Assembly (NCBI GenBank): GCA_964057225.1
Contig: OZ059900.1
Coordinates: 10,850,001-10,914,000, forward strand
Source of the DNA: Auanema rhodensis
Lineage: Eukaryota; Animalia; Nematoda
Direction: 5' to 3'
Length of the DNA stretch: 64,000 bases
A program made the position numbers and the translations under genes. The notes beneath the pieces were generated by a model. That model was not told the DNA's origin. It saw only the letters and a list, made by a program, of their open reading frames with translations, and did not search any database. Positions 13,181-63,372 of the stretch are shown piece by piece. Every line of letters starts with the position of its first letter. Within the stretch, counting starts at the first letter, position 1.

Positions 13181-13272
13181 CGTCAACAAATGAATAATAT
13201 AGTCTTCCTATTAAATCAGGTGGCTTGGCTTTATTTAGAAAATGATAGTTTGAATGGAGCATCCGTTGTCAT

Positions 13273-13283
13273 AAAAAACAAAA
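13273..13283 (-). terminator. Pol III oligo-T terminator (TTTTGTTTTTT), present after every tRNA copy
   Basis: Minus-strand TTAGTTTTGTTTTTT immediately 3' of the tRNA. Confidence 0.85.
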
Positions 13284-13287
13284 CTAA

Positions 13288-13369
13288 CGATCAGGATGAG
13301 ATTCGAACTGACGCGGGGAAACCCCAATGGATTAGCAGTCCATCGCCTTAACCACTCCGCCTCCTGATC
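13288..13369 (-). tRNA. tRNA-Ser(GCT), first array copy (variant: U8A, C12G and a T-stem change; possibly inactive)
   Basis: Same cloverleaf as the consensus but with A-box and T-stem substitutions (ctccgcctcc, gaactgacg on + strand). Confidence 0.75.
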
Positions 13370-13535
13370 ACAGGGTTTTTCCAAGAATACTCTTACTTAA
13401 ACAAAGAAATTATTGTGACAACAAATATCGTCAACAAACAAATAAGAAAGTCTTCCTGTTAAATCAGGTGGCTTGGCTTAATTTAGAAAATGATAGTTTG
13501 AATGGAGCATCCGTTGTCATAAAAAACAAAACTAA

Positions 13536-13617
13536 CGATCAGGATGAGATTCGAACTCACGCGGGGAAACCCCAATGGATTAGCAGTCCATCGCCTTAAC
13601 CACTCGGCCACCTGATC
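13536..13617 (-). tRNA. tRNA-Ser(GCT), consensus copy (repeats every 248 bp)
   Basis: GATCAGGTGGCCGAGTGGTTAAGGCGATGGACTGCTAATCCATTGGGGTTTCCCCGCGTGAGTTCGAATCTCATCCTGATCG: 7-bp acceptor stem, A box, GCT anticodon, long variable arm GGGG/CCCC, GTTCGAA B box, G discriminator. Confidence 0.97.
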
Positions 13618-16600
13618 ACAGGGTTTTTCCAAGAATACTCTTACTTAAACAAAGAAATTATTGTGACAACAAATATCGTCAGCAAACAAATAAGAAAGTC
13701 TTCCTATTAAATCAGGTGGCTTGGCTTTATTTAGAAAATGATAGTTTGAATGGAGCATCCGTTGTCATAAAAAACAAAACTAACGATCAGGATGAGATTC
13801 GAACTCACGCGGGGAAACCCCAATGGATTAGCAGTCCATCGCCTTAACCACTCGGCCACCTGATCACAGGGTTTTTCCAAGAATACTCTTACATAAACAA
13901 AGAAATTATTGTGAGAATAAATAACGTCAACAAATGAATAATATAGTCTTCCTATTAAATCAGGTGGCTTGGCTTTATATAGAAAATGATAGTTTGAATG
14001 GAGCATCCGTTGTCATAAAAAACAAAACTAACGATCAGGATGAGATTCGAACTCACGCGGGGAAACCCCAATGGATTAGCAGTCCATCGCCTTAACCACT
14101 CGGCCACCTGATCACAGGGTTTTTCCAAGAATACTCTTACATAAACAAAGAAATTATTGTGAGAATAAATAACGTCAACAAATGAATAATATAGTCTTCC
14201 TATTAAATCAGGTGGCTTGGCTTTATTTAGAAAATGATAGTTTGAATGGAGCATCCGTTGTCATAAAAAACAAAACTAACGATCAGGATGAGATTCGAAA
14301 TCACGCGGGGAAACCCCAATGGATTAGCAGTCCATCGCCTTAACCACTCCGCCTCCTGATCACAGGGTTTTTCCAAGAATACTCTTACTTAAACAAAGAA
14401 ATTATTGTGACAACAAATATCGTCAACAAACAAATAAGAAAGTCTTCCTGTTAAATCAGGTGGCTTGGCTTAATTTAGAAAATGATAGTTTGAATGGAGC
14501 ATCCGTTATCATAAAAAACAAAACTAACGATCAGGATGAGATTCGAACTCACGCGGGGAAACCCCAATGGATTAGCAGTCCATCGCCTTAACCACTCCGC
14601 CTCCTGATCACAGGGTTTTTCCAAGAATACTCTTACTTAAACAAAGAAATTATTGTGACAACAAATATCGTCAACAAACAAATAAGAAAGTCTTCCTGTT
14701 AAATCAGGTGGCTTGGCTTAATATAGAAAATGATAGTTTGAATGGAGCATCCGTTGTCATAAAAAACAAAACTAACGATCAGGATGAGATTCGAACTCAC
14801 GCGGGGAAACCCCAATGGATTAGCAGTCCATCGCCTTAACCACTCGGCCACCTGATCACAGGGTTTTTCCAAGAATACTCTTACTTAAACAAAGAAATTA
14901 TTGTGACAACAAATATCGTCAGCAAACAAATAAGAAAGTCTTCCTATTAAATCAGGTGGCTTGGCTTTATTTAGAAAATGATAGTTTGAATGGAGCATCC
15001 GTTGTCATAAAAAACAAAACTAACGATCAGGATGAGATTCGAACTGACGCGGGGAAACCCCAATGGATTAGCAGTCCATCGCCTTAACCACTCGGCCACC
15101 TGATCACAGGGTTTTTCCAAGAATACTCTTACTTAAACAAAGAAATTATTGTGACAACAAATATCGTCAGCAAACAAATAAGAAAGTCTTCCTATTAAAT
15201 CAGGTGGCTTGGCTTTATTTAGAAAATGATAGTTTGAATGGAGCATCCGTTGTCATAAAAAACAAAACTAACGATCAGGATGAGATTCGAACTCACGCGG
15301 GGAAACCCCAATGGATTAGCAGTCCATCGCCTTAACCACTCGGCCACCTGATCACAGGGTTTTTCCAAGAATACTCTTACTTAAACAAAGAAATTATTGT
15401 GACAACAAATATCGTCAGCAAACAAATAAGAAAGTCTTCCTATTAAATCAGATGGCTTGGCTTTATTTAGAAAATGATAGTTTGAATGGAGCATCCGTTG
15501 TCATAAAAAACAAAACTAACGATCAGGATGAGATTCGAACTCACGCGGGGAAACCCCAATGGATTAGCAGTCCATCGCCTTAACCACTCGGCCACCTGAT
15601 CACAGGGTTTTTCCAAGAATACTCTTACTTAAACAAAGAAATTATTGTGACAACAAATATCGTCAGCAAACAAATAAGAAAGTCTTCCTATTAAATCAGG
15701 TGGCTTGGCTTTATTTAGAAAATGATAGTTTGAATGGAGCATCCGTTGTCATAAAAAACAAAACTAACGATCAGGATGAGATTCGAACTGACGCGGGGAA
15801 ACCCCAATGGATTAGCAGTCCATCGCCTTAACCACTCCGCCTCCTGATCACAGGGTTTTTCCAAGAATACTCTTACTTAAACAAAGAAATTATTGTGACA
15901 ACAAATATCGTCAACAAACAAATAAGAAAGTCTTCCTGTTAAATCAGGTGGCTTGTCTTAATTTAGAAAATGATAGTTTGAATGGAGCATCCGTTGTCAT
16001 AAAAAACAAAACTAACGATCAGGATGAGATTCGAACTCACGCGGGGAAACCCCAATGGATTAGCAGTCCATCGCCTTAACCACTCGGCCACCTGATCACA
16101 GGGTTTTTCCAAGAATACTCTTACTTAAACAAAGAAATTATTGTGACAACAAATATCGTCAGCAAACAAATAAGAAAGTCTTCCTATTAAATCAGGTGGC
16201 TTGGCTTTATTTAGAAAATGATAGTTTGAATGGAGCATCCGTTGTCATAAAAAACAAAACTAACGATCAGGATGAGATTCGAACTCACGCGGGGAAACCC
16301 CAATGGATTAGCAGTCCATCGCCTTAACCACTCGGCCACCTGATCACAGGGTTTTTCCAAGAATACTCTTACTTAAACAAAGAAATTATTGTGACAACAA
16401 ATATCGTCAGCAAACAAATAAGAAAGTCTTCCTATTAAATCAGGTGGCTTGGCTTTATTTCGAAAATGATAGTTTGAATGGAGCATCCGTTGTCATAAAA
16501 AACAAAACTAACGATCAGGATGAGATTCGAACTCACGCGGGGAAACCCCAATGAATTAGCAGTCCATCGCCTTAACCACTCGGCCACCTGATCACAGGGT

Positions 16601-19600
16601 TTTTCCAAGAATACTCTTACATAAACAAAGAAATTATTGTGAGAATAAATAACGTCAACAAATGAATAATATAGTCTTCCTATTAAATCAGGTGGCTTGG
16701 CTTTATATAGAAAATGATAGTTTGAATGGAGCATCCGTTGTCATAAAAAACAAAACTAACGATCAGGATGAGATTCGAACTCACGCGGGGAAACCCCAAT
16801 GGATTAGCAGTCCATCGCCTTAACCACTCGGCCACCTGATCACAGGGTTTTTCCAAGAATACTCTTACATAAACAAAGAAATTATTGTGAGAATAAATAA
16901 CGTCAACAAATGAATAATATAGTCTTCCTATTAAATCAGGTGGCTTGGCTTTATTTAGAAAATGATAGTTTGAATGGAGCATCCGTTGTCATAAAAAACA
17001 AAACTAACGATCAGGATGAGATTCGAACTCACGCGGGGAAACCCCAATGGATTAGCAGTCCATCGCCTTAACCACTCCGCCTCCTGATCACAGGGTTTTT
17101 CCAAGAATACTCTTACTTAAACAAAGAAATTATTGTGACAACAAATATCGTCAGCAAACAAATAAGAAAGTCTTCCTATTAAATCAGGTGGCTTGGCTTT
17201 ATTTAGAAAATGATAGTTTGAATGGAGCATCCGTTGTCATAAAAAACAAAACTAACGATCAGGATGAGATTCGAACTCACGCGGGGAAACCCCAATGGAT
17301 TAGCAGTCCATCGCCTTAACCACTCGGCCACCTGATCACAGGGTTTTTCCAAGAATACTCTTACTTAAACAAAGAAATTATTGTGACAACAAATATCGTC
17401 AGCAAACAAATAAGAAAGTCTTCCTATTAAATCAGGTGGCTTGGCTTTATTTAGAAAATGATAGTTTGAATGGAGCATCCGTTGTCATAAAAAACAAAAC
17501 TAACGATCAGGATGAGATTCGAACTCACGCGGGGAAACCCCAATGGATTAGCAGTCCATCGCCTTAACCACTCGGCCACCTGATCACAGGGTTTTTCCAA
17601 GAATACTCTTACTTAAACAAAGAAATTATTGTGACAACAAATATCGTCAGCAAACAAATAAGAAAGTCTTCCTATTAAATCAGATGGCTTGGCTTTATTT
17701 AGAAAATGATAGTTTGAATGGAGCATCCGTTGTCATAAAAAACAAAACTAACGATCAGGATGAGATTCGAACTCACGCGGGGAAACCCCAATGGATTAGC
17801 AGTCCATCGCCTTAACCACTCGGCCACCTGATCACAGGGTTTTTCCAAGAATACTCTTACTTAAACAAAGAAATTATTGTGACAACAAATATCGTCAGCA
17901 AACAAATAAGAAAGTCTTCCTATTAAATCAGGTGGCTTGGCTTTATTTAGAAAATGATAGTTTGAATGGAGCATCCGTTGTCATAAAAAACAAAACTAAC
18001 GATCAGGATGAGATTCGAACTCACGCGGGGAAACCCCAATGGATTAGCAGTCCATCGCCTTAACCACTCGGCCACCTGATCACAGGGTTTTTCCAAGAAT
18101 ACTCTTACTTAAACAAAGAAATTATTGTGACAACAAATATCGTCAGCAAACAAATAAGAAAGTCTTCCTATTAAATCAGGTGGCTTGGCTTTATTTAGAA
18201 AATGATAGTTTGAATGGAGCATCCGTTGTCATAAAAAACAAAACTAACGATCAGGATGAGATTCGAACTCACGCGGGGAAACCCCAATGGATTAGCAGTC
18301 CATCGCCTTAACCACTCGGCCACCTGATCACAGGGTTTTTCCAAGAATACTCTTACTTAAACAAAGAAATTATTGTGACAACAAATATCGTCAGCAAACA
18401 AATAAGAAAGTCTTCCTATTAAATCAGGTGGCTTGGCTTTATTTCGAAAATGATAGTTTGAATGGAGCATCCGTTGTCATAAAAAACAAAACTAACGATC
18501 AGGATGAGATTCGAACTCACGCGGGGAAACCCCAATGGATTAGCAGTCCATCGCCTTAACCACTCCGCCTCCTGATCACAGGGTTTTTCCAAGAATACTC
18601 TTACTTAAACAAAGAAATTATTGTGACAACAAATATCGTCAACAAACAAATAAGAAAGTCTTCCTGTTAAATCAGGTGGCTTGGCTTAATTTAGAAAATG
18701 ATAGTTTGAATGGAGCATCCGTTGTCATAAAAAACAAAACTAACGATCAGGATGAGATTCGAACTCACGCGGGGAAACCCCAATGGATTAGCAGTCCATC
18801 GCCTTAACCACTCGGCCACCTGATCACAGGGTTTTTCCAAGAATACTCTTACTTAAACAAAGAAATTATTGTGACAACAAATATCGTCAGCAAACAAATA
18901 AGAAAGTCTTCCTATTAAATCAGGTGGCTTGGCTTTATTTAGAAAATGATAGTTTGAATGGAGCATCCGTTGTCATAAAAAACAAAACTAACGATCACGA
19001 TGAGATTCGAACTCACGCGGGGAAACCCCAATGGATTAGCAGTCCATCGCCTTAACCACTCGGCCACCTGATCACAGGGTTTTTTCAAGAATACTCTTAC
19101 TTAAACAAAGAAATTATTGTGACAACAAATATCGTCAGCAAACAAATAAGAAAGTCTTCCTATTAAATCAGGTGGCTTGGCTTTATTTAGAAAATGATAG
19201 TTTGAATGGAGCATCCGTTGTCATAAAAAACAAAACTAACGATCAGGATGAGATTCGAACTCACGCGGGGAAACCCCAATGGATTAGCAGTCCATCGCCT
19301 TAACCACTCGGCCACCTGATCACAGGGTTTTTCCAAGAATACTCTTACTTAAACAAAGAAATTATTGTGACAACAAATATCGTCAGCAAACAAATAAGAA
19401 AGTCTTCCTATTAAATCAGATGGCTTGGCTTTATTTAGAAAATGATAGTTTGAATGGAGCATCCGTTGTCATAAAAAACAAAACTAACGATCAGGATGAG
19501 ATTCGAACTCACGCGGGGAAACCCCAATGGATTAGCAGTCCATCGCCTTAACCACTCGGCCACCTGATCACAGGGTTTTTCCAAGAATACTCTTACTTAA

Positions 19601-22600
19601 ACAAAGAAATTATTGTGACAACAAATATCGTCAGCAAACAAATAAGAAAGTCTTCCTATTAAATCAGGTGGCTTGGCTTTATTTAGAAAATGATAGTTTG
19701 AATGGAGCATCCGTTGTCATAAAAAACAAAACTAACGATCAGGATGAGATTCGAACTCACGCGGGGAAACCCCAATGGATTAGCAGTCCATCGCCTTAAC
19801 CACTCGGCCACCTGATCACAGGGTTTTTCCAAGAATACTCTTACTTAAACAAAGAAATTATTGTGACAACAAATATCGTCAGCAAACAAATAAGAAAGTC
19901 TTCCTATTAAATCAGGTGGCTTGGCTTTATTTCGAAAATGATAGTTTGAATGGAGCATCCGTTGTCATAAAAAACAAAACTAACGATCAGGATGAGATTC
20001 GAACTCACGCGGGGAAACCCCAATGAATTAGCAGTCCATCGCCTTAACCACTCGGCCACCTGATCACAGGGTTTTTCCAAGAATACTCTTACATAAACAA
20101 AGAAATTATTGTGAGAATAAATAACGTCAACAAATGAATAATATAGTCTTCCTATTAAATCAGGTGGCTTGGCTTTATATAGAAAATGATAGTTTGAATG
20201 GAGCATCCGTTGTCATAAAAAACAAAACTAACGATCAGGATGAGATTCGAACTCACGCGGGGAAACCCCAATGGATTAGCAGTCCATCGCCTTAACCACT
20301 CGGCCACCTGATCACAGGGTTTTTCCAAGAATACTCTTACATAAACAAAGAAATTATTGTGAGAATAAATAACGTCAACAAATGAATAATATAGTCTTCC
20401 TATTAAATCAGGTGGCTTGGCTTTATTTAGAAAATGATAGTTTGAATGGAGCATCCGTTGTCATAAAAAACAAAACTAACGATCAGGATGAGATTCGAAC
20501 TCACGCGGGGAAACCCCAATGGATTAGCAGTCCATCGCCTTAACCACTCCGCCTCCTGATCACAGGGTTTTTCCAAGAATACTCTTACTTAAACAAAGAA
20601 ATTATTGTGACAACAAATATCGTCAGCAAACAAATAAGAAAGTCTTCCTATTAAATCAGGTGGCTTGGCTTTATTTAGAAAATGATAGTTTGAATGGAGC
20701 ATCCGTTGTCATAAAAAACAAAACTAACGATCAGGATGAGATTCGAACTCACGCGGGGAAACCCCAATGGATTAGCAGTCCATCGCCTTAACCACTCGGC
20801 CACCTGATCACAGGGTTTTTCCAAGAATACTCTTACTTAAACAAAGAAATTATTGTGACAACAAATATCGTCAGCAAACAAATAAGAAAGTCTTCCTATT
20901 AAATCAGGTGGCTTGGCTTTATTTAGAAAATGATAGTTTGAATGGAGCATCCGTTGTCATAAAAAACAAAACTAACGATCAGGATGAGATTCGAACTCAC
21001 GCGGGGAAACCCCAATGGATTAGCAGTCCATCGCCTTAACCACTCGGCCACCTGATCACAGGGTTTTTCCAAGAATACTCTTACTTAAACAAAGAAATTA
21101 TTGTGACAACAAATATCGTCAGCAAACAAATAAGAAAGTCTTCCTATTAAATCAGATGGCTTGGCTTTATTTAGAAAATGATAGTTTGAATGGAGCATCC
21201 GTTGTCATAAAAAACAAAACTAACGATCAGGATGAGATTCGAACTCACGCGGGGAAACCCCAATGGATTAGCAGTCCATCGCCTTAACCACTCGGCCACC
21301 TGATCACAGGGTTTTTCCAAGAATACTCTTACTTAAACAAAGAAATTATTGTGACAACAAATATCGTCAGCAAACAAATAAGAAAGTCTTCCTATTAAAT
21401 CAGGTGGCTTGGCTTTATTTAGAAAATGATAGTTTGAATGGAGCATCCGTTGTCATAAAAAACAAAACTAACGATCAGGATGAGATTCGAACTCACGCGG
21501 GGAAACCCCAATGGATTAGCAGTCCATCGCCTTAACCACTCGGCCACCTGATCACAGGGTTTTTCCAAGAATACTCTTACTTAAACAAAGAAATTATTGT
21601 GACAACAAATATCGTCAGCAAACAAATAAGAAAGTCTTCCTATTAAATCAGGTGGCTTGGCTTTATTTAGAAAATGATAGTTTGAATGGAGCATCCGTTG
21701 TCATAAAAAACAAAACTAACGATCAGGATGAGATTCGAACTCACGCGGGGAAACCCCAATGGATTAGCAGTCCATCGCCTTAACCACTCGGCCACCTGAT
21801 CACAGGGTTTTTCCAAGAATACTCTTACTTAAACAAAGAAATTATTGTGACAACAAATATCGTCAGCAAACAAATAAGAAAGTCTTCCTATTAAATCAGG
21901 TGGCTTGGCTTTATTTCGAAAATGATAGTTTGAATGGAGCATCCGTTGTCATAAAAAACAAAACTAACGATCAGGATGAGATTCGAACTCACGCGGGGAA
22001 ACCCCAATGGATTAGCAGTCCATCGCCTTAACCACTCCGCCTCCTGATCACAGGGTTTTTCCAAGAATACTCTTACTTAAACAAAGAAATTATTGTGACA
22101 ACAAATATCGTCAACAAACAAATAAGAAAGTCTTCCTGTTAAATCAGGTGGCTTGGCTTAATTTAGAAAATGATAGTTTGAATGGAGCATCCGTTGTCAT
22201 AAAAAACAAAACTAACGATCAGGATGAGATTCGAACTCACGCGGGGAAACCCCAATGGATTAGCAGTCCATCGCCTTAACCACTCGGCCACCTGATCACA
22301 GGGTTTTTCCAAGAATACTCTTACTTAAACAAAGAAATTATTGTGACAACAAATATCGTCAGCAAACAAATAAGAAAGTCTTCCTATTAAATCAGGTGGC
22401 TTGGCTTTATTTAGAAAATGATAGTTTGAATGGAGCATCCGTTGTCATAAAAAACAAAACTAACGATCACGATGAGATTCGAACTCACGCGGGGAAACCC
22501 CAATGGATTAGCAGTCCATCGCCTTAACCACTCGGCCACCTGATCACAGGGTTTTTTCAAGAATACTCTTACTTAAACAAAGAAATTATTGTGACAACAA

Positions 22601-25600
22601 ATATCGTCAGCAAACAAATAAGAAAGTCTTCCTATTAAATCAGGTGGCTTGGCTTTATTTAGAAAATGATAGTTTGAATGGAGCATCCGTTGTCATAAAA
22701 AACAAAACTAACGATCAGGATGAGATTCGAACTCACGCGGGGAAACCCCAATGGATTAGCAGTCCATCGCCTTAACCACTCGGCCACCTGATCACAGGGT
22801 TTTTCCAAGAATACTCTTACTTAAACAAAGAAATTATTGTGACAACAAATATCGTCAGCAAACAAATAAGAAAGTCTTCCTATTAAATCAGATGGCTTGG
22901 CTTTATTTAGAAAATGATAGTTTGAATGGAGCATCCGTTGTCATAAAAAACAAAACTAACGATCAGGATGAGATTCGAACTCACGCGGGGAAACCCCAAT
23001 GGATTAGCAGTCCATCGCCTTAACCACTCGGCCACCTGATCACAGGGTTTTTTCAAGAATACTCTTACTTAAACAAAGAAATTATTGTGACAACAAATAT
23101 CGTCAGCAAACAAATAAGAAAGTCTTCCTATTAAATCAGGTGGCTTGGCTTTATTTAGAAAATGATAGTTTGAATGGAGCATCCGTTGTCATAAAAAACA
23201 AAACTAACGATCAGGATGAGATTCGAACTCACGCGGGGAAACCCCAATGGATTAGCAGTCCATCGCCTTAACCACTCGGCCACCTGATCACAGGGTTTTT
23301 CCAAGAATACTCTTACTTAAACAAAGAAATTATTGTGACAACAAATATCGTCAGCAAACAAATAAGAAAGTCTTCCTATTAAATCAGATGGCTTGGCTTT
23401 ATTTAGAAAATGATAGTTTGAATGGAGCATCCGTTGTCATAAAAAACAAAACTAACGATCAGGATGAGATTCGAACTCACGCGGGGAAACCCCAATGAAT
23501 TAGCAGTCCATCGCCTTAACCACTCGGCCACCTGATCACAGGGTTTTTCCAAGAATACTCTTACATAAACAAAGAAATTATTGTGAGAATAAATAACGTC
23601 AACAAATGAATAATATAGTCTTCCTATTAAATCAGGTGGCTTGGCTTTATATAGAAAATGATAGTTTGAATGGAGCATCCGTTGTCATAAAAAACAAAAC
23701 TAACGATCAGGATGAGATTCGAACTCACGCGGGGAAACCCCAATGGATTAGCAGTCCATCGCCTTAACCACTCGGCCACCTGATCACAGGGTTTTTCCAA
23801 GAATACTCTTACTTAAACAAAGAAATTATTGTGACAACAAATATCGTCAGCAAACAAATAAGAAAGTCTTCCTATTAAATCAGATGGCTTGGCTTTATTT
23901 AGAAAATGATAGTTTGAATGGAGCATCCGTTGTCATAAAAAACAAAACTAACGATCAGGATGAGATTCGAACTCACGCGGGGAAACCCCAATGGATTAGC
24001 AGTCCATCGCCTTAACCACTCGGCCACCTGATCACAGGGTTTTTCCAAGAATACTCTTACTTAAACAAAGAAATTATTGTGACAACAAATATCGTCAGCA
24101 AACAAATAAGAAAGTCTTCCTATTAAATCAGATGGCTTGGCTTTATTTAAAAAATGATAGTTTGAATGGAGCATCCGTTGTCATAAAAAACAAAACTAAC
24201 GATCAGGATGAGATTCGAACTCACGCGGGGAAACCCCAATGGATTAGCAGTCCATCGCCTTAACCACTCGGCCACCTGATCACAGTGTTTTTCCAAGAAT
24301 ACTCTTACTTAAACAAAGAAATTATTGTGACAACAAATATCGTCAGCAAACAAATAAGAAAGTCTTCCTATTAAATCAGATGGCTTGGCTTTATTTAGAA
24401 AATGATAGTTTGAATGGAGCATCCGTTGTCATAAAAAACAAAACTAACGATCAGGATGAGATTCGAACTCACGCGGGGAAACCCCAATGGATTAGCAGTC
24501 CATCGCCTTAACCACTCGGCCACCTGATCACAGGGTTTTTCCAAGAATACTCTTACATAAACAAAGAAATTATTGTGAGAATAAATAACGTCAACAAATG
24601 AATAATATAATCTTCCTATTAAATCAGGTGGATTGGCTTTATTTAGAAAATGATAGTTTGAATGGAGCATCCGTTGTCATAAAAAACAAAACTAACGATC
24701 AGGATGAGATTCGAACTCACGCGGGGAAACCCCAATGGATTAGCAGTCCATCGCCTTAACCACTCGGCCACCTGATCACAGGGTTTTTCCAAGAATACTC
24801 TTACTTAAACAAAGAAATTATTGTGACAACAAATATCGTCAGCAAACAAATAAGAAAGTCTTCCTATTAAATCAGGTGGCTTGGCTTTATTTAGAAAATG
24901 ATAGTTTGAATGGAGCATCCGTTGTCATAAAAAACAAAACTAACGATCAGGATGAGATTCGAACTCACGCGGGGAAACCCCAATGGATTAGCAGTCCATC
25001 GCCTTAACCACTCGGCCACCTGATCACAGGGTTTTTTCAAGAATACTCTTACTTAAACAAAGAAATTATTGTGACAACAAATATCGTCAGCAAACAAATA
25101 AGAAAGTCTTCCTATTAAATCAGGTGGCTTGGCTTTATTTAGAAAATGATAGTTTGAATGGAGCATCCGTTGTCATAAAAAACAAAACTAACGATCAGGA
25201 TGAGATTCGAACTCACGCGGGGAAACCCCAATGGATTAGCAGTCCATCGCCTTAACCACTCGGCCACCTGATCACAGGGTTTTTCCAAGAATACTCTTAC
25301 TTAAACAAAGAAATTATTGTGACAACAAATATCGTCAGCAAACAAATAAGAAAGTCTTCCTATTAAATCAGATGGCTTGGCTTTATTTAGAAAATGATAG
25401 TTTGAATGGAGCATCCGTTGTCATAAAAAACAAAACTAACGATCAGGATGAGATTCGAACTCACGCGGGGAAACCCCAATGAATTAGCAGTCCATCGCCT
25501 TAACCACTCGGCCACCTGATCACAGGGTTTTTCCAAGAATACTCTTACATAAACAAAGAAATTATTGTGAGAATAAATAACGTCAACAAATGAATAATAT

Positions 25601-28600
25601 AGTCTTCCTATTAAATCAGGTGGCTTGGCTTTATATAGAAAATGATAGTTTGAATGGAGCATCCGTTGTCATAAAAAACAAAACTAACGATCAGGATGAG
25701 ATTCGAACTCACGCGGGGAAACCCCAATGGATTAGCAGTCCATCGCCTTAACCACTCGGCCACCTGATCACAGGGTTTTTCCAAGAATACTCTTACTTAA
25801 ACAAAGAAATTATTGTGAGAATAAATAACGTCAACAAATGAATAATATAGTCTTCCTATTAAATCAGGTGGCTTGGCTTTATTCAGAAAATGATAGTTTG
25901 AATGGAGCATCCGTTGTCATAAAAAACAAAACTAACGATCAGGATGAGATTCGAACTCACGCGGGGAAACCCCAATGGATTAGCAGTCCATCGCCTTAAC
26001 CACTCGGCCACCTGATCACAGGGTTTTTCCAAGAATACTCTTACTTAAACAAAGAAATTATTGTGAGAATAAATAACGTCAACAAATGAATAATATAGTC
26101 TTCCTATTAAATCAGGTGGCTTGGCTTTATTTAGAAAATGATAGTTTGAATAGAGCATCCGTTGTCATAAAAAACAAAACTAACGATCAGGATGAGATTC
26201 GAACTCACGCGGGGAAACCCCAATGGATTAGCAGTCCATCGCCTTAACCACTCGGCCACCTGATCACAGGGTTTTTCCAAGAATACTCTTACATAAACAA
26301 AGAAATTATTGTGAGAATAAATAACGTCAAAAAATGAATAATATAGTCTTCCTATTAAATCAGGTGGCTTGGCTTTATTTAGAAAATGATAGTTTGAATG
26401 GAGCATCCGTTGTCATAAAAAACAAAACTAACGATCAGGATGAGATTCGAACTCACGCGGGGAAACCCCAATGGATTAGCAGTCCATCGCCTTAACCACT
26501 CGGCCACCTGATCACAGGGTTTTTCCAAGAATACTCTTACTTAAACAAAGAAATTATTGTGACAACAAATATCGTCAGCAAACAAATAAGAAAGTCTTCC
26601 TATTAAATCAGATGGCTTGGCTTTATTTAGAAAATGATAGTTTGAATGGAGCATCCGTTGTCATAAAAAACAAAACTAACGATCAGGATGAGATTCGAAC
26701 TCACGCGGGGAAACCCCAATGGATTAGCAGTCCATCGCCTTAACCACTCGGCCACCTGATCACAGGGTTTTTCCAAGAATACTCTTACTTAAACAAAGAA
26801 ATTATTGTGACAACAAATATCGTCAGCAAACAAATAAGAAAGTCTTCCTATTAAATCAGATGGCTTGGCTTTATTTAGAAAATGATAGTTTGAATGGAGC
26901 ATCCGTTGTCATAAAAAACAAAACTAACGATCAGGATGATATTCGAACTCACGCGGGGAAACCCCAATGGATTAGCAGTCCATCGCCTTAACCACTCGGC
27001 CACCTGATCACAGGGTTTTTCCAAGAATACTCTTACATAAACAAAGAAATTATTGTGAGAATAAATAACGTCAACAAATGAATAATATAATCTTCCTATT
27101 AAATCAGGTGGATTGGCTTTATTTAGAGAATGATAGTTTGAATGGAGCATCCGTTGTCATAAAAAACAAAACTAACGATCAGGATGAGATTCGAACTCAC
27201 GCGGGGAAACCCCAATGGATTAGCAGTCCATCGCCTTAACCACTCGGCCACCTGATCACAGGGTTTTTCCAAGAATACTCTTACTTAAACAAAGAAATTA
27301 TTGTGACAACAAATATCGTCAGCAAACAAATAAGAAAGTCTTCCTATTAAATCAGGTGGCTTGGCTTTATTGAGAAAATGATAGTTTGAATGGAGCATCC
27401 GTTGTCATAAAAAACAAAACTAACGATCAGGATGAGATTCGAACTCACGCGGGGAAACCCCAATGGATTAGCAGTCCATCGCCTTAACCACTCGGCCACC
27501 TGATCACAGGGTTTTTCCAAGAATACTCTTACTTAAACAAAGAAATTATTGTGACAACAAATATCGTCAGCAAACAAATAAGAAAGTCTTCCTATTAAAT
27601 CAGGTGGCTTGGCTTTATTTAGAAAATGATAGTTTGAATGGAGCATCCGTTGTCATAAAAAACAAAACTAACGATCAGGATGAGATTCGAACTCACGCGG
27701 GGAAACCCCAATGGATTAGCAGTCCATCGCCTTAACCACTCGGCCACCTGATCACAGGGTTTTTCCAAGAATACTCTTAATTAAACAAAGAAATTATTGT
27801 GACAACAAATAACGTCAACAAATGAATAATATAATCTTCCTATTAAATCAGGTGGATTGGCTTTATTTAGAAAATGATAGTTTGAATGGAGCATCCGTTG
27901 TCATAAAAAACAAAACTAACGATCAGGATGAGATTCGAACTCACGCGGGGAAACCCCAATGGATTAGCAGTCCATCGCCTTAACCACTCGGCCACCTGAT
28001 CACAGGGTTTTTCCAAGAATACTCTTACATAAACAAAGAAATTATTGTGAGAATAAATAACGTCAACAAATGAATAATATAGTCTTCCTATTAAATCAGG
28101 TGGCTTGGCTTTATTTAGAAAATGATAGTTTGAATGGAGCATCCGTTGTCATAAAAAACAAAACTAACGATCAGGATGAGATTCGAACTCACGCGGGGAA
28201 ACCCCAATGGATTAGCAGTCCATCGCCTTAACCACTCGGCCACCTGATCACAGGGTTTTTCCAAGAATACTCTTACTTAAACAAAGAAATTATTGTGAGA
28301 ATAAATAACGTCAACAAATGAATAATATAGTCTTCCTATTAAATCAGGTGGCTTGGCTTTATTTAGAAAATGATAGTTTGAATGGAGCATCCGTTGTCAT
28401 AAAAAACAAAACTAACGATCAGGATGAGATTCGAACTCACGCGTGGAAACCCCAATGGATTAGCAGTCCATCGCCTTAACCACTCGGCCACCTGATCACA
28501 GGGTTTTTCCAAGAATACTCTTACTTAAACAAAGAAATTATTGTGACAACAAATATCGTCAACAAACAAATAAGAAAGTCTTCCTGTTAAATCAGGTGGC

Positions 28601-52600: not shown

Positions 52601-55600
52601 AAATGATAGTTTGAATGGAGCATCCGTTGTCATAAAAAACAAAACTAACGATCAGGATGAGATTCGAACTCACGCGGGGAAACCCCAATGGATTAGCAGT
52701 CCATCGCCTTAACCACTCGGCCACCTGATCACAGGGTTTTTCCAAGAATACTCTTACTTAAACAAAGAAATTATTGTGACAACAAATATCGTCAACAAAC
52801 AAATAAGAAAGTCTTCCTATTAAATCAGGTGGCTTGGCTTTATTTAGAAAATGATAGTTTGAATGGAGCATCCGTTGTCATAAAAAACAAAACTAACGAT
52901 CAGGATGAGATTCGAACTCACGCGGGGAAACCCCAATGGATTAGCTGTCCATCGCCTTAACCACTCGGCCACCTGATCACAGGGTTTTTCCAAGAATACT
53001 CTTACTTAAACAAAGAAATTATTGTGAGAATAAATAACGTCAACAAATGAATAATATAGTCTTCCTATTAAATCAGGTGGCTTGGCTTTATTTAGAAAAT
53101 GATAGTTTGAATGGAGCATCCGTTGTCATAAAAAACAAAACTAACGATCAGGATGAGATTCGAACTCACGCGGGGAAACCCCAATGGATTAGCAGTCCAT
53201 CGCCTTAACCACTCGGCCACCTGATCACAGGGTTTTTCCAAGAATACTCTTACTTAAACAAAGAAATTATTGTGAGAATAAATAACGTCAACAAATGAAT
53301 AATATAGTCTTCCTATTAAATCAGGTGGCTTGGCTTTATTTAGAAAATGATAGTTTGAATGGAGCATCCGTTGTCATAAAAAACAAAACTAACGATCAGG
53401 ATGAGATTCGAACTCACGCGGGGAAACCCCAATGGATTAGCAGTCCATCGCCTTAACCACTCGGCCACCTGATCACAGGGTTTTTCCAAGAATACTCTTA
53501 CTTAAACAAAGAAATTATTGTGAGAATAAATAACGTCAACAAATGAATAATATAGTCTTCCTATTAAATCAGGTGGCTTGGCTTTATTTAGAAAATGATA
53601 GTTTGAATGGAGCATCCGTTGTCATAAAAAACAAAACTAACGATGAGGATGAGATTCGAACTCACGCGGGGAAACCCCAATGGATTAGCAGTCCATCGCC
53701 TTAACCACTCGGCCACCTGATCACAGGGTTTTTCCAAGAATACTCTTACTTAAACAAAGAAATTTTGTGACAACAAATATCGTCAACAAACAAATAAGAA
53801 AGTCTTCCTGTTAAATCAGGTGGCTTGGCTTCATTTAGAAAATGATAGTTTGAATGGAGCATCCGTTGTCATAAAAAACAAAACTAACGATCAGGATGAG
53901 ATTCGAACTCACGCGGGGAAACCCCAATGGATTAGCAGTCCATCGCCTTAACCACTCGGCCACCTGATCACAGGGTTTTTCCAAGAATACTCTTACATAA
54001 ACAAAGAAATTATTGTGAGAATAAATAACGTCAACAAATGAATAATATAGTCTTCCTATTAAATCAGGTGGCTTGGCTTTATTTAGAAAATGATAGTTTG
54101 AATGGAGAATCCGTTGTCATAAAAAACAAAACTAACGATCAGGATGAGATTCGAACTCACGCGGGGAAACCCCAATGGATTAGCAGTCCATCGCCTTAAC
54201 CACTCGGCCACCTGATCACAGGGTTTTTCCAAGAATACTCTTACTTAAACAAAGAAATTATTGTGACAACAAATATCGTCAGCAAACAAATAAGAAAGTC
54301 TTCCTATCAAATCAGGTGGCTTGGCTTTATTTAGAAAATGATAGTTTGAATGGAGCATCCGTTGTCATAAAAAACAAAACTAACGATCAGGATGAGATTC
54401 GAACTCACGCGGGGAAACCCCAATGGATTAGCAGTCCATCGCCTTAACCACTCGGCCACCTGATCACAGGGTTTTTCCAAGAATACTCTTACTTAAACAA
54501 AGAAATTATTGTGAGAATAAATAACGTCAACAATGAATAATATAGTCTTCCTATTAAATCAGGTGGCTTGGCTTTATTTAGAAAATGATAGTTTGAATGG
54601 AGCATCCGTTGTCATAAAAAACAAAACTAACGATCAGGATGAGATTGGAACTCACGCGGGGAAACCCCAATGGATTAGCAGTCCATCGCCTTAACCACTC
54701 GGCCACCTGATCACAGGGTTTTTCCAAGAATACTCTTACTTGAACAAAGAAATTATTGTGACAACAAATATCGTCAACAAACAAATAAGAAAGTCTTCCT
54801 GTTAAATCAGGTGGCTTGGCTTCATTTAGAAAATGATAGTTTGAATGGAGCATCCGTTGTCATAAAAAACAAAACTAACGATCAGGATGAGATTCGAACT
54901 CACGCGGGGAAACCCCAATGGATTAGCAGTCCATCGCCTTAACCACTCGGCCACCTGATCACAGGGTTTTTCCAAGAATACTCTTACTTAAACAAAGAAA
55001 TTATTGTGACAACAAATATCGTCAGCAAACAAATAAGAAAGTCTTCCTATTAAATCAGGTGGCTTGGCTTTATTTAGAAAATGATAGTTTGAATGGAGCA
55101 TCCGTTGTCATAAAAAACAAAACTAACGATCAGGATGAGATTCGAACTCACGCGGGGAAACCCCAATGGATTAGCAGTCCATCGCCTTAACCACTCGGCC
55201 ACCTGATCACAGGGTTTTTCCAAGAATACTCTTACATAAACAAAGAAATTATTGTGAGAATAAATAACGTCAACAAATGAATAATATAGTCTTCCTATTA
55301 AATCAGGTGGCTTGGCTTTATTTAGAAAATGATAGTTTGAATGGAGCATCCGTTGTCATAAAAAACAAAACTAACGATCAGGATGAGATTCGAACTCACG
55401 CGGGGAAACCCCAATGGATTAGCAGTCCATCGCCTTAACCACTCGGCCACCTGATCACAGGGTTTTTCCAAGAATACTCTTACATAAACAAAGAAATTAT
55501 TGTGAGAATAAATAACGTCAACAAATGAATAATATAGTCTTCCTATTAAATCAGGTGGCTTGGCTTTATTTAGAAAATGATAGTTTGAATGGAGCATCCG

Positions 55601-58600
55601 TTGTCATAAAAAACAAAACTAACGATCAGGATGAGATTCGAACTCACGCGGGGAAACCCCAATGGATTAGCAGTCCATCGCCTTAACCACTCGGCCACCT
55701 GATCACAGGGTTTTTCCAAGAATACTCTTACTTAAACAAAGAAATTATTGTGAGAATAAATAACGTCAACAAATGAATAATATAGTCTTCCTATTAAATC
55801 AGGTGGCTTGGCTTTATTTAGAAAATGATAGTTTGAATGGAGCATCCGTTGTCATAAAAAACAAAACTAACGATCAGGATGAGATTGGAACTCACGCGGG
55901 GAAACCCCAATGGATTAGCAGTCCATCGCCTTAACCACTCGGCCACCTGATCACAGGGTTTTTCCAAGAATACTCTTACTTGAACAAAGAAATTATTGTG
56001 ACAACAAATATCGTCAACAAACAAATAAGAAAGTCTTCCTGTTAAATCAGGTGGCTTGGCTTCATTTAGAAAATGATAGTTTGAATGGAGCATCCGTTGT
56101 CATAAAAAACAAAACTAACGATCAGGATGAGATTCGAACTCACGCGGGGAAACCCCAATGGATTAGCAGTCCATCGCCTTAACCACTCGGCCACCTGATG
56201 ACAGGGTTTTTCCAAGAATACTCTTACATAAACAAAGAAATTATTGTGAGAATAAATAACGTCAACAAATGAATAATATAGTCTTCCTATTAAATCAGGT
56301 GGCTTGGCTTTATTTAGAAAATGATAGTTTGAATGGAGCATCCGTTGTCATAAAAAACAAAACTAACGATCAGGATGAGATTCGAACTCACGCGGGGAAA
56401 CCCCAATGGATTAGCAGTCCATCGCCTTAACCACTCGGCCACCTGATCACAGGGTTTTTCCAAGAATACTCTTACTTAAACAAAGAAATTATTGTGAGAA
56501 TAAATAACGTCAACAAATGAATAATATAGTCTTCCTATTAAATCAGGTGGCTTGGCTTTATTTAGAAAATGATAGTTTGAATGGAGCATCCGTTGTCATA
56601 AAAAACAAAACTAACGATCAGGATGAGATTGGAACTCACGCGGGGAAACCCCAATGGATTAGCAGTCCATCGCCTTAACCACTCGGCCACCTGATCACAG
56701 GGTTTTTCCAAGAATACTCTTACTTGAACAAAGAAATTATTGTGACAACAAATATCGTCAACAAACAAATAAGAAAGTCTTCCTGTTAAATCAGGTGGCT
56801 TGGCTTCATTTAGAAAATGATAGTTTGAATGGAGCATCCGTTGTCATAAAAAACAAAACTAACGATCAGGATGAGATTCGAACTCACGCGGGGAAACCCC
56901 AATGGATTAGCAGTCCATCGCCTTAACCACTCGGCCACCTGATCACAGGGTTTTTCCAAGAATACTCTTACATAAACAAAGAAATTATTGTGAGAATAAA
57001 TAACGTCAACAAATGAATAATATAGTCTTCCTATTAAATCAGGTGGCTTGGCTTTATTTAGAAAATGATAGTTTGAATGGAGCATCCGTTGTCATAAAAA
57101 ACAAAACTAACGATCAGGATGAGATTCGAACTCACGCGGGGAAACCCCAATGGATTAGCAGTCCATCGCCTTAACCACTCGGCCACCTGATCACAGGGTT
57201 TTTCCAAGAATACTCTTACTTAAACAAAGAAATTATTGTGAGAATAAATAACGTCAACAAATGAATAATATAGTCTTCCTATTAAATCAGGTGGCTTGGC
57301 TTTATTTAGAAAATGATAGTTTGAATGGAGCATCCGTTGTCATAAAAAACAAAACTAACGATCAGGATGAGATTCGAACTCACGCGGGGAAACCCCAATG
57401 GATTAGCAGTCCATCGCCTTAACCACTCGGCCACCTGATCACAGGGTTTTTCCAAGAATACTCTTACATAAACAAAGAAATTATTGTGAGAATAAATAAC
57501 GTCAACAAATGAATAATATAGTCTTCCTATTAAATCAGGTGGCTTGGCTTTATTTAGAAAATGATAGTTTGAATGGAGCATCCGTTGTCATAAAAAACAA
57601 AACTAACGATCAGGATGAGATTCGAACTCACGCGGGGAAACCCCAATGGATTAGCAGTCCATCGCCTTAACCACTCGGCCACCTGATCACAGGGTTTTTC
57701 CAAGAATACTCTTACATAAACAAAGAAATTATTGTGAGAATAAATAACGTCAACAAATGAATAATATAGTCTTCCTATTAAATCAGGTGGCTTGGCTTTA
57801 TTTAGAAAATGATAGTTTGAATGGAGCATCCGTTGTCATAAAAAACAAAACTAACGATCAGGATGAGATTCGAACTCACGCGGGGAAACCCCAATGGATT
57901 AGCAGTCCATCGCCTTAACCACTCGGCCACCTGATCACAGGGTTTTTCCAAGAATACTCTTACATAAACAAAGAAATTATTGTGAGAATAAATAACGTCA
58001 ACAAATGAATAATATAGTCTTCCTATTAAATCAGGTGGCTTGGCTTTATTTAGAAAATGATAGTTTGAATGGAGCATCCGTTGTCATAAAAAACAAAACT
58101 AACGATCAGGATGAGATTCGAACTCACGCGGGGAAACCCCAATGGATTAGCAGTCCATCGCCTTAACCACTCGGCCACCTGATCACAGGGTTTTTCCAAG
58201 AATACTCTTACATAAACAAAGAAATTATTGTGAGAATAAATAACGTCAACAAATGAATAATATAGTCTTCCTATTAAATCAGGTGGCTTGGCTTTATTTA
58301 GAAAATGATAGTTTGAATGGAGCATCCGTTGTCATAAAAAACAAAACTAACGATCAGGATGAGATTCGAACTCACGCGGGGAAACCCCAATGGATTAGCA
58401 GTCCATCGCCTTAACCACTCGGCCACCTGATCACAGGGTTTTTCCAAGAATACTCTTACTTAAACAAAGAAATTATTGTGAGAATAAATAACGTCAACAA
58501 ATGAATAATATAGTCTTCCTATTAAATCAGGTGGCTTGGCTTTATTTAGAAAATGATAGTTTGAATGGAGCATCCGTTGTCATAAAAAACAAAACTAACG

Positions 58601-61078
58601 ATCAGGATGAGATTGGAACTCACGCGGGGAAACCCCAATGGATTAGCAGTCCATCGCCTTAACCACTCGGCCACCTGATCACAGGGTTTTTCCAAGAATA
58701 CTCTTACTTGAACAAAGAAATTATTGTGACAACAAATATCGTCAACAAACAAATAAGAAAGTCTTCCTGTTAAATCAGGTGGCTTGGCTTCATTTAGAAA
58801 ATGATAGTTTGAATGGAGCATCCGTTGTCATAAAAAACAAAACTAACGATCAGGATGAGATTCGAACTCACGCGGGGAAACCCCAATGGATTAGCAGTCC
58901 ATCGCCTTAACCACTCGGCCACCTGATCACAGGGTTTTTCCAAGAATACTCTTACATAAACAAAGAAATTATTGTGAGAATAAATAACGTCAACAAATGA
59001 ATAATATAGTCTTCCTATTAAATCAGGTGGCTTGGCTTTATTTAGAAAATGATAGTTTGAATGGAGCATCCGTTGTCATAAAAAACAAAACTAACGATCA
59101 GGATGAGATTCGAACTCACGCGGGGAAACCCCAATGGATTAGCAGTCCATCGCCTTAACCACTCGGCCACCTGATCACAGGGTTTTTCCAAGAATACTCT
59201 TACATAAACAAAGAAATTATTGTGAGAATAAATAACGTCAACAAATGAATAATATAGTCTTCCTATTAAATCAGGTGGCTTGGCTTTATTTAGAAAATGA
59301 TAGTTTGAATGGAGCATCCGTTGTCATAAAAAACAAAACTAACGATCAGGATGAGATTCGAACTCACGCGGGGAAACCCCAATGGATTAGCAGTCCATCG
59401 CCTTAACCACTCGGCCACCTGATCACAGGGTTTTTCCAAGAATACTCTTACATAAACAAAGAAATTATTGTGAGAATAAATAACGTCAACAAATGAATAA
59501 TATAGTCTTCCTATTAAATCAGGTGGCTTGGCTTTATTTAGAAAATGATAGTTTGAATGGAGCATCCGTTGTCATAAAAAACAAAACTAACGATCAGGAT
59601 GAGATTCGAACTCACGCGGGGAAACCCCAATGGATTAGCAGTCCATCGCCTTAACCACTCGGCCACCTGATCACAGGGTTTTTCCAAGAATACTCTTACT
59701 TAAACAAAGAAATTATTGTGAGAATAAATAACGTCAACAAATGAATAATATAGTCTTCCTATTAAATCAGGTGGCTTGGCTTTATTTAGAAAATGATAGT
59801 TTGAATGGAGCATCCGTTGTCATAAAAAACAAAACTAACGATCAGGATGAGATTCGAACTCACGCGGGGAAACCCCAATGGATTAGCAGTCCATCGCCTT
59901 AACCACTCGGCCACCTGATCACAGGGTTTTTCCAAGAATACTCTTACTTGAACAAAGAAATTATTGTGACAACAAATATCGTCAACAAACAAATAAGAAA
60001 GTCTTCCTGTTAAATCAGGTGGCTTGGCTTCATTTAGAAAATGATAGTTTGAATGGAGCATCCGTTGTCATAAAAAACAAAACTAACGATCAGGATGAGA
60101 TTCGAACTCACGCGGGGAAACCCCAATGGATTAGCAGTCCATCGCCTTAACCACTCGGCCACCTGATCACAGGGTTTTTCCAAGAATACTCTTACATAAA
60201 CAAAGAAATTATTGTGAGAATAAATAACGTCAACAAATGAATAATATAGTCTTCCTATTAAATCAGGTGGCTTGGCTTTATTTAGAAAATGATAGTTTGA
60301 ATGGAGCATCCGTTGTCATAAAAAACAAAACTAACGATCAGGATGAGATTCGAACTCACGCGGGGAAACCCCAATGGATTAGCAGTCCATCGCCTTAACC
60401 ACTCGGCCACCTGATCACAGGGTTTTTCCAAGAATACTCTTACTTAAACAAAGAAATTATTGTGAGAATAAATAACGTCAACAAATGAATAATATAGTCT
60501 TCCTATTAAATCAGGTGGCTTGGCTTTATTTAGAAAATGATAGTTTGAATGGAGCATCCGTTGTCATAAAAAACAAAACTAACGATCAGGATGAGATTCG
60601 AACTCACGCGGGGAAACCCCAATGGATTAGCAGTCCATCGCCTTAACCACTCGGCCACCTGATCACAGGGTTTTTCCAAGAATACTCTTACTTGAACAAA
60701 GAAATTATTGTGACAACAAATATCGTCAACAAACAAATAAGAAAGTCTTCCTGTTAAATCAGGTGGCTTGGCTTCATTTAGAAAATGATAGTTTGAATGG
60801 AGCATCCGTTGTCATAAAAAACAAAACTAACGATCAGGATGAGATTCGAACTCACGCGGGGAAACCCCAATGGATTAGCAGTCCATCGCCTTAACCACTC
60901 GGCCACCTGATCACAGGGTTTTTCCAAGAATACTCTTACATAAACAAAGAAATTATTGTGAGAATAAATAACGTCAACAAATGAATAATATAGTCTTCCT
61001 ATTAAATCAGGTGGCTTGGCTTTATTTAGAAAATGATAGTTTGAATGGAGCATCCGTTGTCATAAAAAACAAAACTAA

Positions 61079-61160
61079 CGATCAGGATGAGATTCGAACT
61101 CACGCGGGGAAACCCCAATGGATTAGCAGTCCATCGCCTTAACCACTCGGCCACCTGATC
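61079..61160 (-). tRNA. tRNA-Ser(GCT), last array copy
   Basis: Identical to the consensus copy. Confidence 0.97.
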
Positions 61161-61236
61161 ACAGGGTTTTTCCAAGAATACTCTTACTTAAACAAAGAAA
61201 TTATTGTGAGAATAAATAACGTCAACAAATGAATAA

Positions 61237-61519
61237 TGTTACATACATATCTCAAAGGAAAGCAGCTGACCATGGCAGCTGCTATTATTAAACTAATGCA
61301 GATAGTTTTTAAGCAATTCTGAGAATATTCTAGATGCACTTTTTATAAGCTTTGTAATATTTTGTGTAAACTGAGTAGGAGTTGTATGGATATATAAACC
61401 TGAGTCCTCAAGACTCAGGCATCTCATCATCTCATTATCTCATTATCTTACTTTCTCTTTATCTTCTTTATATTCGCTCTCTTAACTCTAGCTTTAGTCT
61501 TTGTATAATTATATTATAA
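61237..61519 (+). mobile_element. 3'-truncated LTR of a second copy of the same element
   Basis: Begins TGTTACATACATATCTC and matches 12764-~13038, then breaks into pol sequence. Confidence 0.92.
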
Positions 61520-62520
61520 AGTGTTACTTGGAATAGACTTCATGGAAGCATTACACCAACAAGGAATTTACACCTCACTTCGACCACTGGATAACACAAT
61601 TGTTATCGGCTCAACACATGTTCCACTAGCACGAGAAACATCTCCGTGGGAACACCAGACCACGAAAGCATATGTGGTTAGCTTAGAAAACAAAACGCTA
61701 AGACCAGGAGAAACAAGAACGCTCACGCTAGAAGTACACGATCCAGAAAGCTATGAACAGGCGTTTCTAGATTGTAAGAAACCAGGCAACAAACTCTCTT
61801 TCACGCCTACTATATTTACGCCAACTGGATACGGAGTACAAATCTACGCGACGAATATATGCAAACAGCCACTCGAAATTCAAATGAATCAAGAAATAGG
61901 GATAGCAGAAGCGATACCAAAGGACAATCAAGAAAAATACGAAGGACAATACATTCCTCCGGAAGCTCGATGGGAAGAACAACTGCCATATTTCCCAGAC
62001 AATTTCATCAATGAGCTTGACCTTTCAGAGGCCTGCTTCTCGCAAATCGAACAACAGCAACTGAAAGAAATAATTTTACTACATAAACAAGCGTTTCTCA
62101 ACGAAGATAGAAATATCGGACTCTTCCTAGGACCAATTGAACACTCCATTCCAATCATGCCAGGAAAAGCACCATCATTCAAAATTACTTATCGTATACC
62201 ACTCTCCCAACAAGAAGAAGTGGAGAAACAAATAGAAGAAATGCTACAACAAAGAATCATTGAACCATCAAACTCAATGACAACTAGTCCAGTAATTTTG
62301 GTGAAGAAGAAAGACAAAACTTACAGATTTGTAACGGACTTTCGAGCTCTGAATGCAATCACCCAGAAACAAGTATACGTCATATCAAACATACAGGACA
62401 TCCTAGATTTGGCCGCTGGAGCAAGGATCTTCAGCAACTTTGATTTAGTATCTGGATTTTTCCAAATACCTCTTAAGAAAGAAGATCGTCATCTTACAGC
62501 TTTCACAACAACAAGTGGAA
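61520..62520 (+). pseudogene. 1001-bp pol fragment (end of protease to N-terminal RT) of a second element copy
   Basis: Colinear with 7806-8806 with about 17 substitutions; lacks the DTG and YLDD motifs; ORF 61521-62615 reads on into unrelated sequence. Confidence 0.92.
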
Positions 62521-63237
62521 GTTATTTATTGAATTTTAATAAATTTTCGTATATAGGATTTTGGATAGAGAGAATGATAAATGATATAGGTACTCTTATA
62601 AATAAATCAAAATGACTTATGAGAATAACATAATGAATAGAAAACTGAGTTTTTGGATACAATTTTTAATAGAAAAGTTTTAGAGTTTTTAAGAGAAAAT
62701 ATTATAAGCTAACTTTTTAGAGAGATAAGATTTTTAATTGAATAAGAGTTGTAGACGGTAGCGCTTGAGTTCTTTTACAAGATCCTGTCCAAAAGAAAGG
62801 ATCTCCGGGGAACCTCCACGTTCCATTTAGATTCTCAATGGTTCCAAGTTGAGAGATCCAAACAGACTATGAGAAGATGAGTATGGTTTTAGATATAAGT
62901 GTGTAATGTAAGGTGAAATAAGAAACAAGAGATGAAATATATAAAGGTTTATTGTTCGCATTATAATATAATTATACAAAGATTTAAGCTAGAGTTAAGA
63001 AAGAGAATATAAAGAAATGATGATGAGATAAAGAGAAAATAAGATAATGAGATGCCTGAGTCTTGAGGACTCAGGTTTATATATCCATACAACTCCTACT
63101 CAGTTTACACAAAATGTTACAAAGCTTATAAAAAGTGCATCTAGAATATTCTCAGAATTGCTTAAAAACTATCTGCATTAGTTTTATAATAGCAGCTGCC
63201 ATGGTCAGCTGCCTTCCTTCGAGATATGTATGTAACA
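62521..63237 (-). mobile_element. Inverted 5' end of a third copy: 5' LTR (62819-63237), PBS and AT-rich leader
   Basis: Reverse complement of the 12764-13180 LTR, followed on the minus strand by a TGG-starting PBS. Confidence 0.92.
62801..62818 (-). promoter_or_regulatory. Primer binding site, tRNA-Gln type
   Basis: TGGAGGTTCCCCGGAGAT directly after the LTR end; 16/18 match to the complement of the conserved eukaryotic tRNA-Gln 3' end (TGGAGGTTCCACCGAGAT, from recall). Confidence 0.8.
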
Positions 63238-63372
63238 GTTTGTTGACGTTATTTATTATTATTCTTACTTAAACAAAAAAACTATTGTGAGAATAAATAA
63301 CGTATTCGAACAAAGTACAAAAATTTTTGAGTCAAATCAGGTAGCTTGGCTTTATTTAGAAAACGATAGTTT
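63238..63372. repeat. Remnants of the array spacer: 20-bp inverted piece (63238-63257) and a diverged direct spacer lacking a tRNA (63263-63372)
   Basis: 63238-63257 reverse complement is aataaataacgtcaacaaac; then tcttacttaaac...ttgtgagaataaataacgt...aaatcaggtagcttggctttatttagaaaacgatagttt. Confidence 0.85.

Follow-up and report, generated by a model that had tools for sequence, protein, structure and literature searches.

The retrotransposons tabulated in PMC5911963 as neighbours of tRNA genes come from yeast and dictyostelid hosts only, and where elements with long terminal repeats (LTRs) target tRNA genes, the usual view is that they have adapted to the compact genomes of yeasts and amoebae (PMC5006619). 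TRE5 inserts 40-54 bp upstream of tRNA genes in the opposite orientation and binds TFIIIB, NLTR-B inserts 39-64 bp upstream and TRE3 40-150 bp downstream (PMC5911963), and a distance of ~100 bp downstream is given for TRE3 or Skipper (PMC5006619). A 2026 review names only yeast Ty1 and Ty2 for the tRNA-gene niche (PMC13269885). As for animal elements, Cer1 of C. elegans inserts widely and has no true env (PMC10309623), a survey of mosquito LTR elements saw no target preference (PMC3286476), and no animal LTR element targeting tRNA genes was found in the literature searched, few subscription papers being within reach. GAG-ENV-POL elements with an ENV of the herpes simplex virus (HSV) glycoprotein B (gB) type are a described nematode class (PMC13524379), and the text of that publication is silent on any preference for target sites, the terms 'target site' and 'insertion site' not occurring in it. 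Here we describe a 64,000-nucleotide stretch of DNA from the nematode Auanema rhodensis (the window), in which three copies of such an envelope-carrying LTR element, elements 1, 2 and 3, adjoin the spacer of a tandem tRNA-Ser(GCT) gene array within 17 bp of the 248-bp unit and in one orientation.

LTR junctions in the tRNA-Ser(GCT) spacer

The array unit consists of an 82-bp tRNA-Ser(GCT) gene and a 166-bp spacer. The array of ~48 kb makes up most of the window, in which ARAGORN counted 193 tRNA-Ser(GCT) genes. A fixed anchor located 181 units; the gene sequence was identical in 137 of them, and their spacers were of type A (75), type B (93) or other types (13).

LTR starts are found in the window at 12764 (+), 61237 (+) and 63237 (-). 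With offsets counted from the tRNA +1 into the spacer, junction 1 (13180/13181) lies after spacer base 59 (offset -59) and junction 2 (61236/61237) after spacer base 76 (offset -76), both in type-B spacers, and junction 3, beside the LTR start at 63237, lies at -69/-70. The flank of junction 3 corresponds to spacer bases 51-69, exactly over 19 bp and inverted, and its next base differs from the type-B spacer; the complete 20-mer at this junction is absent from the array, in which no match of 12 or more bases was found. Since none of 5,588 19-mers from the window's non-array AT-rich DNA matched the array, the 19-bp match at junction 3 is not due to chance.

The 3' end of the LTR was fixed at 13180, as the same end precedes the primer-binding site, which begins with TGG, in the LTR of element 3 and in the public sequencing runs X7 and X9. 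As the LTR end is fixed by the primer-binding site, all three junctions are precise LTR termini, and such termini point to integrase and not to break repair. A microhomology origin of junction 1 was ruled out, the shared AACG not having been used as an overlap. The preliminary description of this DNA had placed the junctions at -59, -76 and -70 of the tRNA-Ser unit, and these positions were confirmed. Its statement that element 3 and its flank are inverted together held for a flank of only ~20 bp, beyond which degenerate spacer lies in the array's own orientation.

All three junctions of the window sit in array spacer sequence (one tRNA gene type being in view), and they occupy 17 bp of the 248-bp unit (n=3). 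The bases at the three sites have no short consensus in common, the three positions having different flanking bases, while position and orientation are shared, which fits targeting by position rather than by sequence. A CGTCA pentamer lies at, or at most 12 bp from, every junction, and all junctions are at or just past this motif. Measured from the next gene, the same sites are 107, 90 and 96 bp downstream (for offsets -59, -76 and -69/-70, respectively). As the target is an array, 'upstream of gene n' and 'downstream of gene n+1' are indistinguishable.

Three points placed at random would share one orientation and lie in a stretch of 11-17 bp with a probability of 0.0017-0.0037 on the whole 248-bp unit and 0.0034-0.0077 on the spacer alone, and with strong AT weighting the clustering and orientation together give p up to 0.011. 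For three insertions falling in the array, p ranges from 1e-8 to 2e-3 with 10-50 copies and an array of 0.05-0.5% of the genome, both of these ranges being assumed and not measured. The three copies probably show a real insertion preference of a known class of elements. In the preliminary description this had been called apparent integration targeted to RNA polymerase III (Pol III) genes; the clustering indeed exceeds what the simple null models allow, and Pol III factors may have a role in it.

The element family and the number of insertions

Element 1 carries its genes in one long open frame, in which Pfam placed the protease at amino acids 1574-1664, the reverse transcriptase (RT) at 1916-2075, RNase H at 2138-2268 and the integrase at 2384-2552. 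This order of pol domains is that of the nematode GAG-ENV-POL errantiviruses, and LTRs and a primer-binding site (presumably that of tRNA-Gln) are present as well. The region between gag and pol encodes a gB-type env: PF00606 matched amino acids 1203-1281 with an E value of 5e-05 and 23 bits, the cut-off being 43, and the region aligned with gB-annotated nematode polyproteins with an E value of 1e-41. The integrase has a GPY motif at amino acid 2692, followed by an acidic tail of 266 amino acids, and no chromodomain. The tail had no match among the stored relatives, and a search with the integrase C-terminus returned generic integrase matches only. The closest polyproteins are those of Caenorhabditis and Diploscapter, with 45-51% identity from RT to integrase, and an RT tree of 45 proteins, the published reference set not included, placed element 1 among them with a support of 0.98; from these relationships alone the host would be judged to be a nematode. 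Judged from its sequence, the element is a nematode-type GAG-ENV(gB)-POL Ty3/gypsy errantivirus and as such belongs to an already known class, of which Sacco et al. (2022) reportedly gave the first account.

The number of integration events was judged from the divergence of the copies, on the assumption that the pol fragment at the right end belongs to element 2 and with gene conversion ignored. Compared with element 1, this fragment carries 14 synonymous and 3 nonsynonymous substitutions (ratio of nonsynonymous to synonymous rates, dN/dS, 0.06; p 2e-7), and on these counts the divergence is the product of selection in transposing lineages and not of decay after a genomic duplication. Between LTR1 and LTR2 there are 7 differing sites and an 8-bp indel, and the probability that an 8.6-kb frame would stay open at 1.25% neutral change is 0.004. 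Between LTR2 and LTR3 there are 16 such sites, of which a repeat tract contributes 8, where a split after the insertion of element 2 would predict ~2 differences (p 1e-9 for 16 and 0.001 for 8). At least two separate integration events are close to certain, and three are likely. Junction 3 is the weaker case, as its flank mirrors that of junction 2.

Eleven public runs (four coded organisms, three studies) contain the element. Four of the 11 were examined as contigs, which drop rare variants, against LTR1 and spacer -60 to -159 only. The allele that LTR3 has at the site corresponding to 13014 is common in all four, and it is absent from LTR1 and LTR2. In X2 and X9, a joint on the opposite strand connects an LTR start with the 39-bp block by which the degenerate edge unit of the window is recognised. 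This joint is most likely the junction-3 locus; the letters between, including the -70 flank, are out of view, and one of the two runs may be the source of the window. With the same reservation about the source, the presence of the joint and the edge in both runs ruled out an assembly artefact at the right end.

Searches of other sequence collections returned no locus of this family. The scan with an LTR-start pattern produced 5 matches in viral contigs, taken as chance for a 17-mer, and 0 in metagenome and prokaryote contigs; queries with the integrase against the viral, metagenome and prokaryote contigs likewise ended without a related locus. The alignment search with the whole polyprotein returned 6 distant Ty3/gypsy contigs with 26-39% identity.

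The features of the window are collected in Table 1.

Table 1. Positions of the retroelement copies, the tRNA-Ser array and neighbouring features in the window.
Feature	Position	Strand	Details	Source
End of probable Maverick/Polinton	1..2910	.		Pfam Chromo, Tandem Repeats Finder (TRF), sequence
Open frame of element 1	2842..11724	+	single frame, 2960 codons: gag, gB-type env, protease, RT, RNase H, integrase	
Extra 3' frame (open reading frame 2, ORF2)	11853..12572	+	239 codons	
3' LTR of element 1 (LTR1)	12764..13180	+	417 bp, TG...CG; short G-run just before	
Tandem array	13181..61236	-	248-bp units	ARAGORN, TRF
Two 213-bp units	28746..29666	.	both with an identical 35-bp spacer deletion	TRF, sequence comparison
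Last tRNA-Ser gene	61079..61160	-	76 bp from LTR2	
5' LTR of element 2 (LTR2)	61237..61519	+	first 283 bp only	
Protease-RT fragment	61520..62518	+	directly joined to LTR2	
5' leader of element 3	62519..62818	-	TGG-led primer-binding site at 62818	
5' LTR of element 3 (LTR3)	62819..63237	-	419 bp; type differs from LTR1 and LTR2	
Inverted spacer piece flanking LTR3	63238..63257	-		sequence comparison
Degenerate array-edge spacer	63258..63373	+	about -17 to -130; no tRNA gene, then unique DNA	

The LTRs end in CG instead of the usual CA (13177-13180; 62819-62822), directly before the primer-binding site. As X7 and X9 show the same end, it is a trait of the family. The primer-binding site of element 3 differs from that in X7 and X9 by 2 of 20 letters. 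ORF2 had no match in Pfam or Atlas and none among the other 122 stored proteins. In the env region of element 1 (5950-6300), a long threonine-rich, mucin-like insert separates two blocks that can be aligned with relatives; it includes ACT and ACAACAACC repeats at 6073-6164 (TRF).

The 5' part of element 1 is interrupted near 2910 by the probable Maverick, a name that comes from the preliminary description and is based on terminal features; the leader and the 5' LTR are out of view, and the 2960-codon frame is still open. The visible part of this probable Maverick encodes an integrase C-terminus with a chromodomain (3-539) and has subterminal 30-bp repeats (2758-2870) and a terminus near 2910; in its interior (2233-2400), a 56-bp repeat that contains a hairpin is present in three tandem copies.

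Along the array, the spacers change from mostly type A at the left to mostly type B at the right, and a higher-order repeat of 461 bp is present at 28357-29987. At either end, Rfam found nothing but tRNAs above the gathering score. At the right end, LTR2 and LTR3 make up an inverted repeat, each pointing towards the other, and most of both elements is missing between them (61237-63257). A 10-mer at the join of the pol fragment and the leader (62521-62530) recurs at 63248-63257.

Possible causes of the shared position

We favour position-biased integration guided by Pol III complexes and give this reading a probability of roughly one half; the Pol III mechanism itself is plausible and unproven. 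Three copies of one GAG-ENV-POL Ty3/gypsy family would have integrated separately in a 17-bp zone of the spacer, to which host Pol III factors on the tRNA genes would have guided the integration complex. A tether to TFIIIB, TFIIIC or Pol III could place the cut just past the protein-covered upstream region, and the same tether could fix the orientation away from the gene. By its position only, the acidic integrase tail is a candidate for this tether. On the distances, an anchor downstream of a gene, like that of TRE3 or Skipper (~100 bp), would fit equally well. The cost to the host would presumably be small because about 190 gene copies remain, and the tDNA array may serve the element as a 'safe harbour'. 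More tentatively, we propose that the ability to integrate at a specific position, 60-76 bp upstream of tRNA genes, and in a specific orientation evolved independently in an envelope-carrying animal LTR element, which would use a Pol III tether and have tandem tDNA arrays as its niche.

A number of observations weigh against guidance by Pol III complexes. The material amounts to three junctions, one array and one tRNA type, and because the window was chosen for its striking look, the p values overstate the case. A tRNA gene is visible only at junction 2 (61079-61160), that of junction 1 lying outside the window and that of junction 3 being lost, and no target-site duplication is visible at the window junctions. 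The known Ty3/gypsy elements that target Pol III genes sit much closer to them, within about 33 bp (PMC5911963). In X1 and X2, a diverged 75-bp LTR-like start (9 differences) has 30 visible flank letters that are not array spacer; compared by eye, this flank and the type-A spacer have one 8-mer in common at roughly the distance of junction 3, which is weak evidence, as 364 of 5,568 background 28-mers (6.5%) share any such 8-mer. No new array junction was found in the four examined runs among the loose ends and joints listed, with a further 21 loose ends and 169 pieces beyond the list; since contigs drop rare variants and junctions nearer the gene would be visible only as loose ends, this absence is no evidence either way. 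The divergence of the LTRs is less telling at the upper 95% rate, at which p for LTR2 and LTR3 is 0.0007 for 16 sites and a non-significant 0.22 without the repeat tract, and p for the excess between LTR1 and LTR2 is 0.43 with the repeat tract left out. The 19-bp flank of junction 3 is the exact mirror of the junction 2 flank. Finally, the 35-bp deletion found in two units begins at -74, within the junction zone, and the edge unit departs from the array sequence from about -63, so the zone may just be fragile or exposed.

The deletion and the edge divergence in the junction zone would suit a local hot spot at which no Pol III tether is involved and the tRNA gene has no part in the choice of site, the integrase being drawn by DNA shape, by a short motif or by the chromatin phased along the 248-bp repeat. 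The CGTCA at or just before every junction agrees with this, as does, weakly, the CGTCA included in the 8-mer of the X1/X2 flank. The cut sites, however, lie at varying distances from the motif, p does not rise above 0.011 when AT weighting alone is applied, and DNA shape alone would not readily fix the orientation; we regard a hot spot of this kind as rather unlikely, though it deserves attention before the other alternatives. It is less probable still that there is no preference at all and that broad insertion was followed by persistence in a gene-poor repeat region, the clustering being a coincidence among many scanned windows. The small sample and its selection after the fact speak for such a coincidence, and so do the nesting of the probable Maverick in the same region, the one LTR-like end outside the array in X1 and X2, and the behaviour of the nematode Ty3/gypsy element Cer1, which has many insertion sites across all chromosomes and is also found inside the gene plg-1 (PMC10309623). 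The clustering (p 0.002-0.011) and the presence of three of 10-50 insertions in the array (p 1e-8 to 2e-3 under the assumed ranges) are hard to reconcile with it.

The least probable of the alternatives is that there were fewer events than junctions, either because junction 3 is a fold-back copy of junction 2 minus 6 bp or because unequal crossing-over multiplied a single element, of which junctions 1 and 2 would be the two ends. Here it counts that the inverted repeat made by LTR2 and LTR3 extends into their flanks, where 19 bp are identical, that the right end is clearly rearranged, with two joins, and that junctions 1 and 2 have the type-B spacer in common. Against a fold-back copy, LTR3 has family-level variants that LTR2 lacks, and its locus is probably present in two other organisms (X2, X9). 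LTR integrases usually make duplications of 4-6 bp. The reading of junctions 1 and 2 as the ends of one insertion was rejected, as it would need a duplication of 17 bp, which deletions cannot provide, and the pol divergence is nearly all synonymous. One insertion plus rearrangement, the objection raised in the preliminary description itself, was therefore made unlikely by the dN/dS value, the distinct LTR types and the 17-bp duplication needed.

Comparison with known elements

The nematode errantiviruses share with this family the gene order gag, gB env, pol, a pol of Ty3/gypsy type, and LTRs with a primer-binding site; this family differs from them in having an extra 3' frame and a TG...CG LTR. 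Ty3, Tj1, Ylt1/Tyl3/Tyl6, Tca8 and DGLT-A resemble it in having a Ty3/gypsy integrase with a GPY/F motif and no chromodomain and in using a narrow window 5' of a tRNA gene (PMC5911963). The distance differs: for these elements it is 1-10 bp when counted from the start site or 6-33 bp when counted from the mature tRNA, whereas the junctions described here lie 59-76 bp away and thus outside the span of about 33 bp from the mature tRNA 5' end that holds for Ty3 and DGLT-A. DGLT-A also inserts in either orientation (PMC5911963), unlike the single orientation seen here, in an animal host and with an envelope gene. If the preference is real, a distance of 60-76 bp would be unlisted for any Ty3/gypsy element in the table of PMC5911963.

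Yeast Ty1, Ty2 and Ty4 are likewise LTR elements with insertions upstream of Pol III genes that lie past the start site, but they belong to the Ty1/copia clade, and their window is ~1 kb compared with 17 bp here. The animal elements that resemble this family in their place of insertion are Dewa, found in the spacer of the zebrafish tRNA-Leu gene, and the Dada DNA transposons, all of which use multicopy tRNA genes or their spacer (PMC3706591). They are non-LTR elements or DNA transposons and are described as inserting sequence-specifically at fixed sites, whereas the three sites found here differ by up to 17 bp and in their flanking bases, so that no single nucleotide is the target.

By distance, the best match for this family is provided by the dictyostelid elements, TRE5 and NLTR-B upstream and TRE3 and Skipper-2 downstream of tRNA genes. 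The TRE and NLTR elements are non-LTR retrotransposons with another integration chemistry, Skipper-2 is an LTR element with a diverged chromodomain, which is absent here, and the hosts are amoebae with dispersed tRNA genes instead of an array. Should the Pol III reading be true for an animal errantivirus, the same solution would have arisen again, with tandem tRNA arrays as a cheap target, and a new pairing of integrase and host factor would join the short list of natural targeted integrases. Targeting like that of Ty3 and TRE5 would then extend to an animal, retrovirus-like element.

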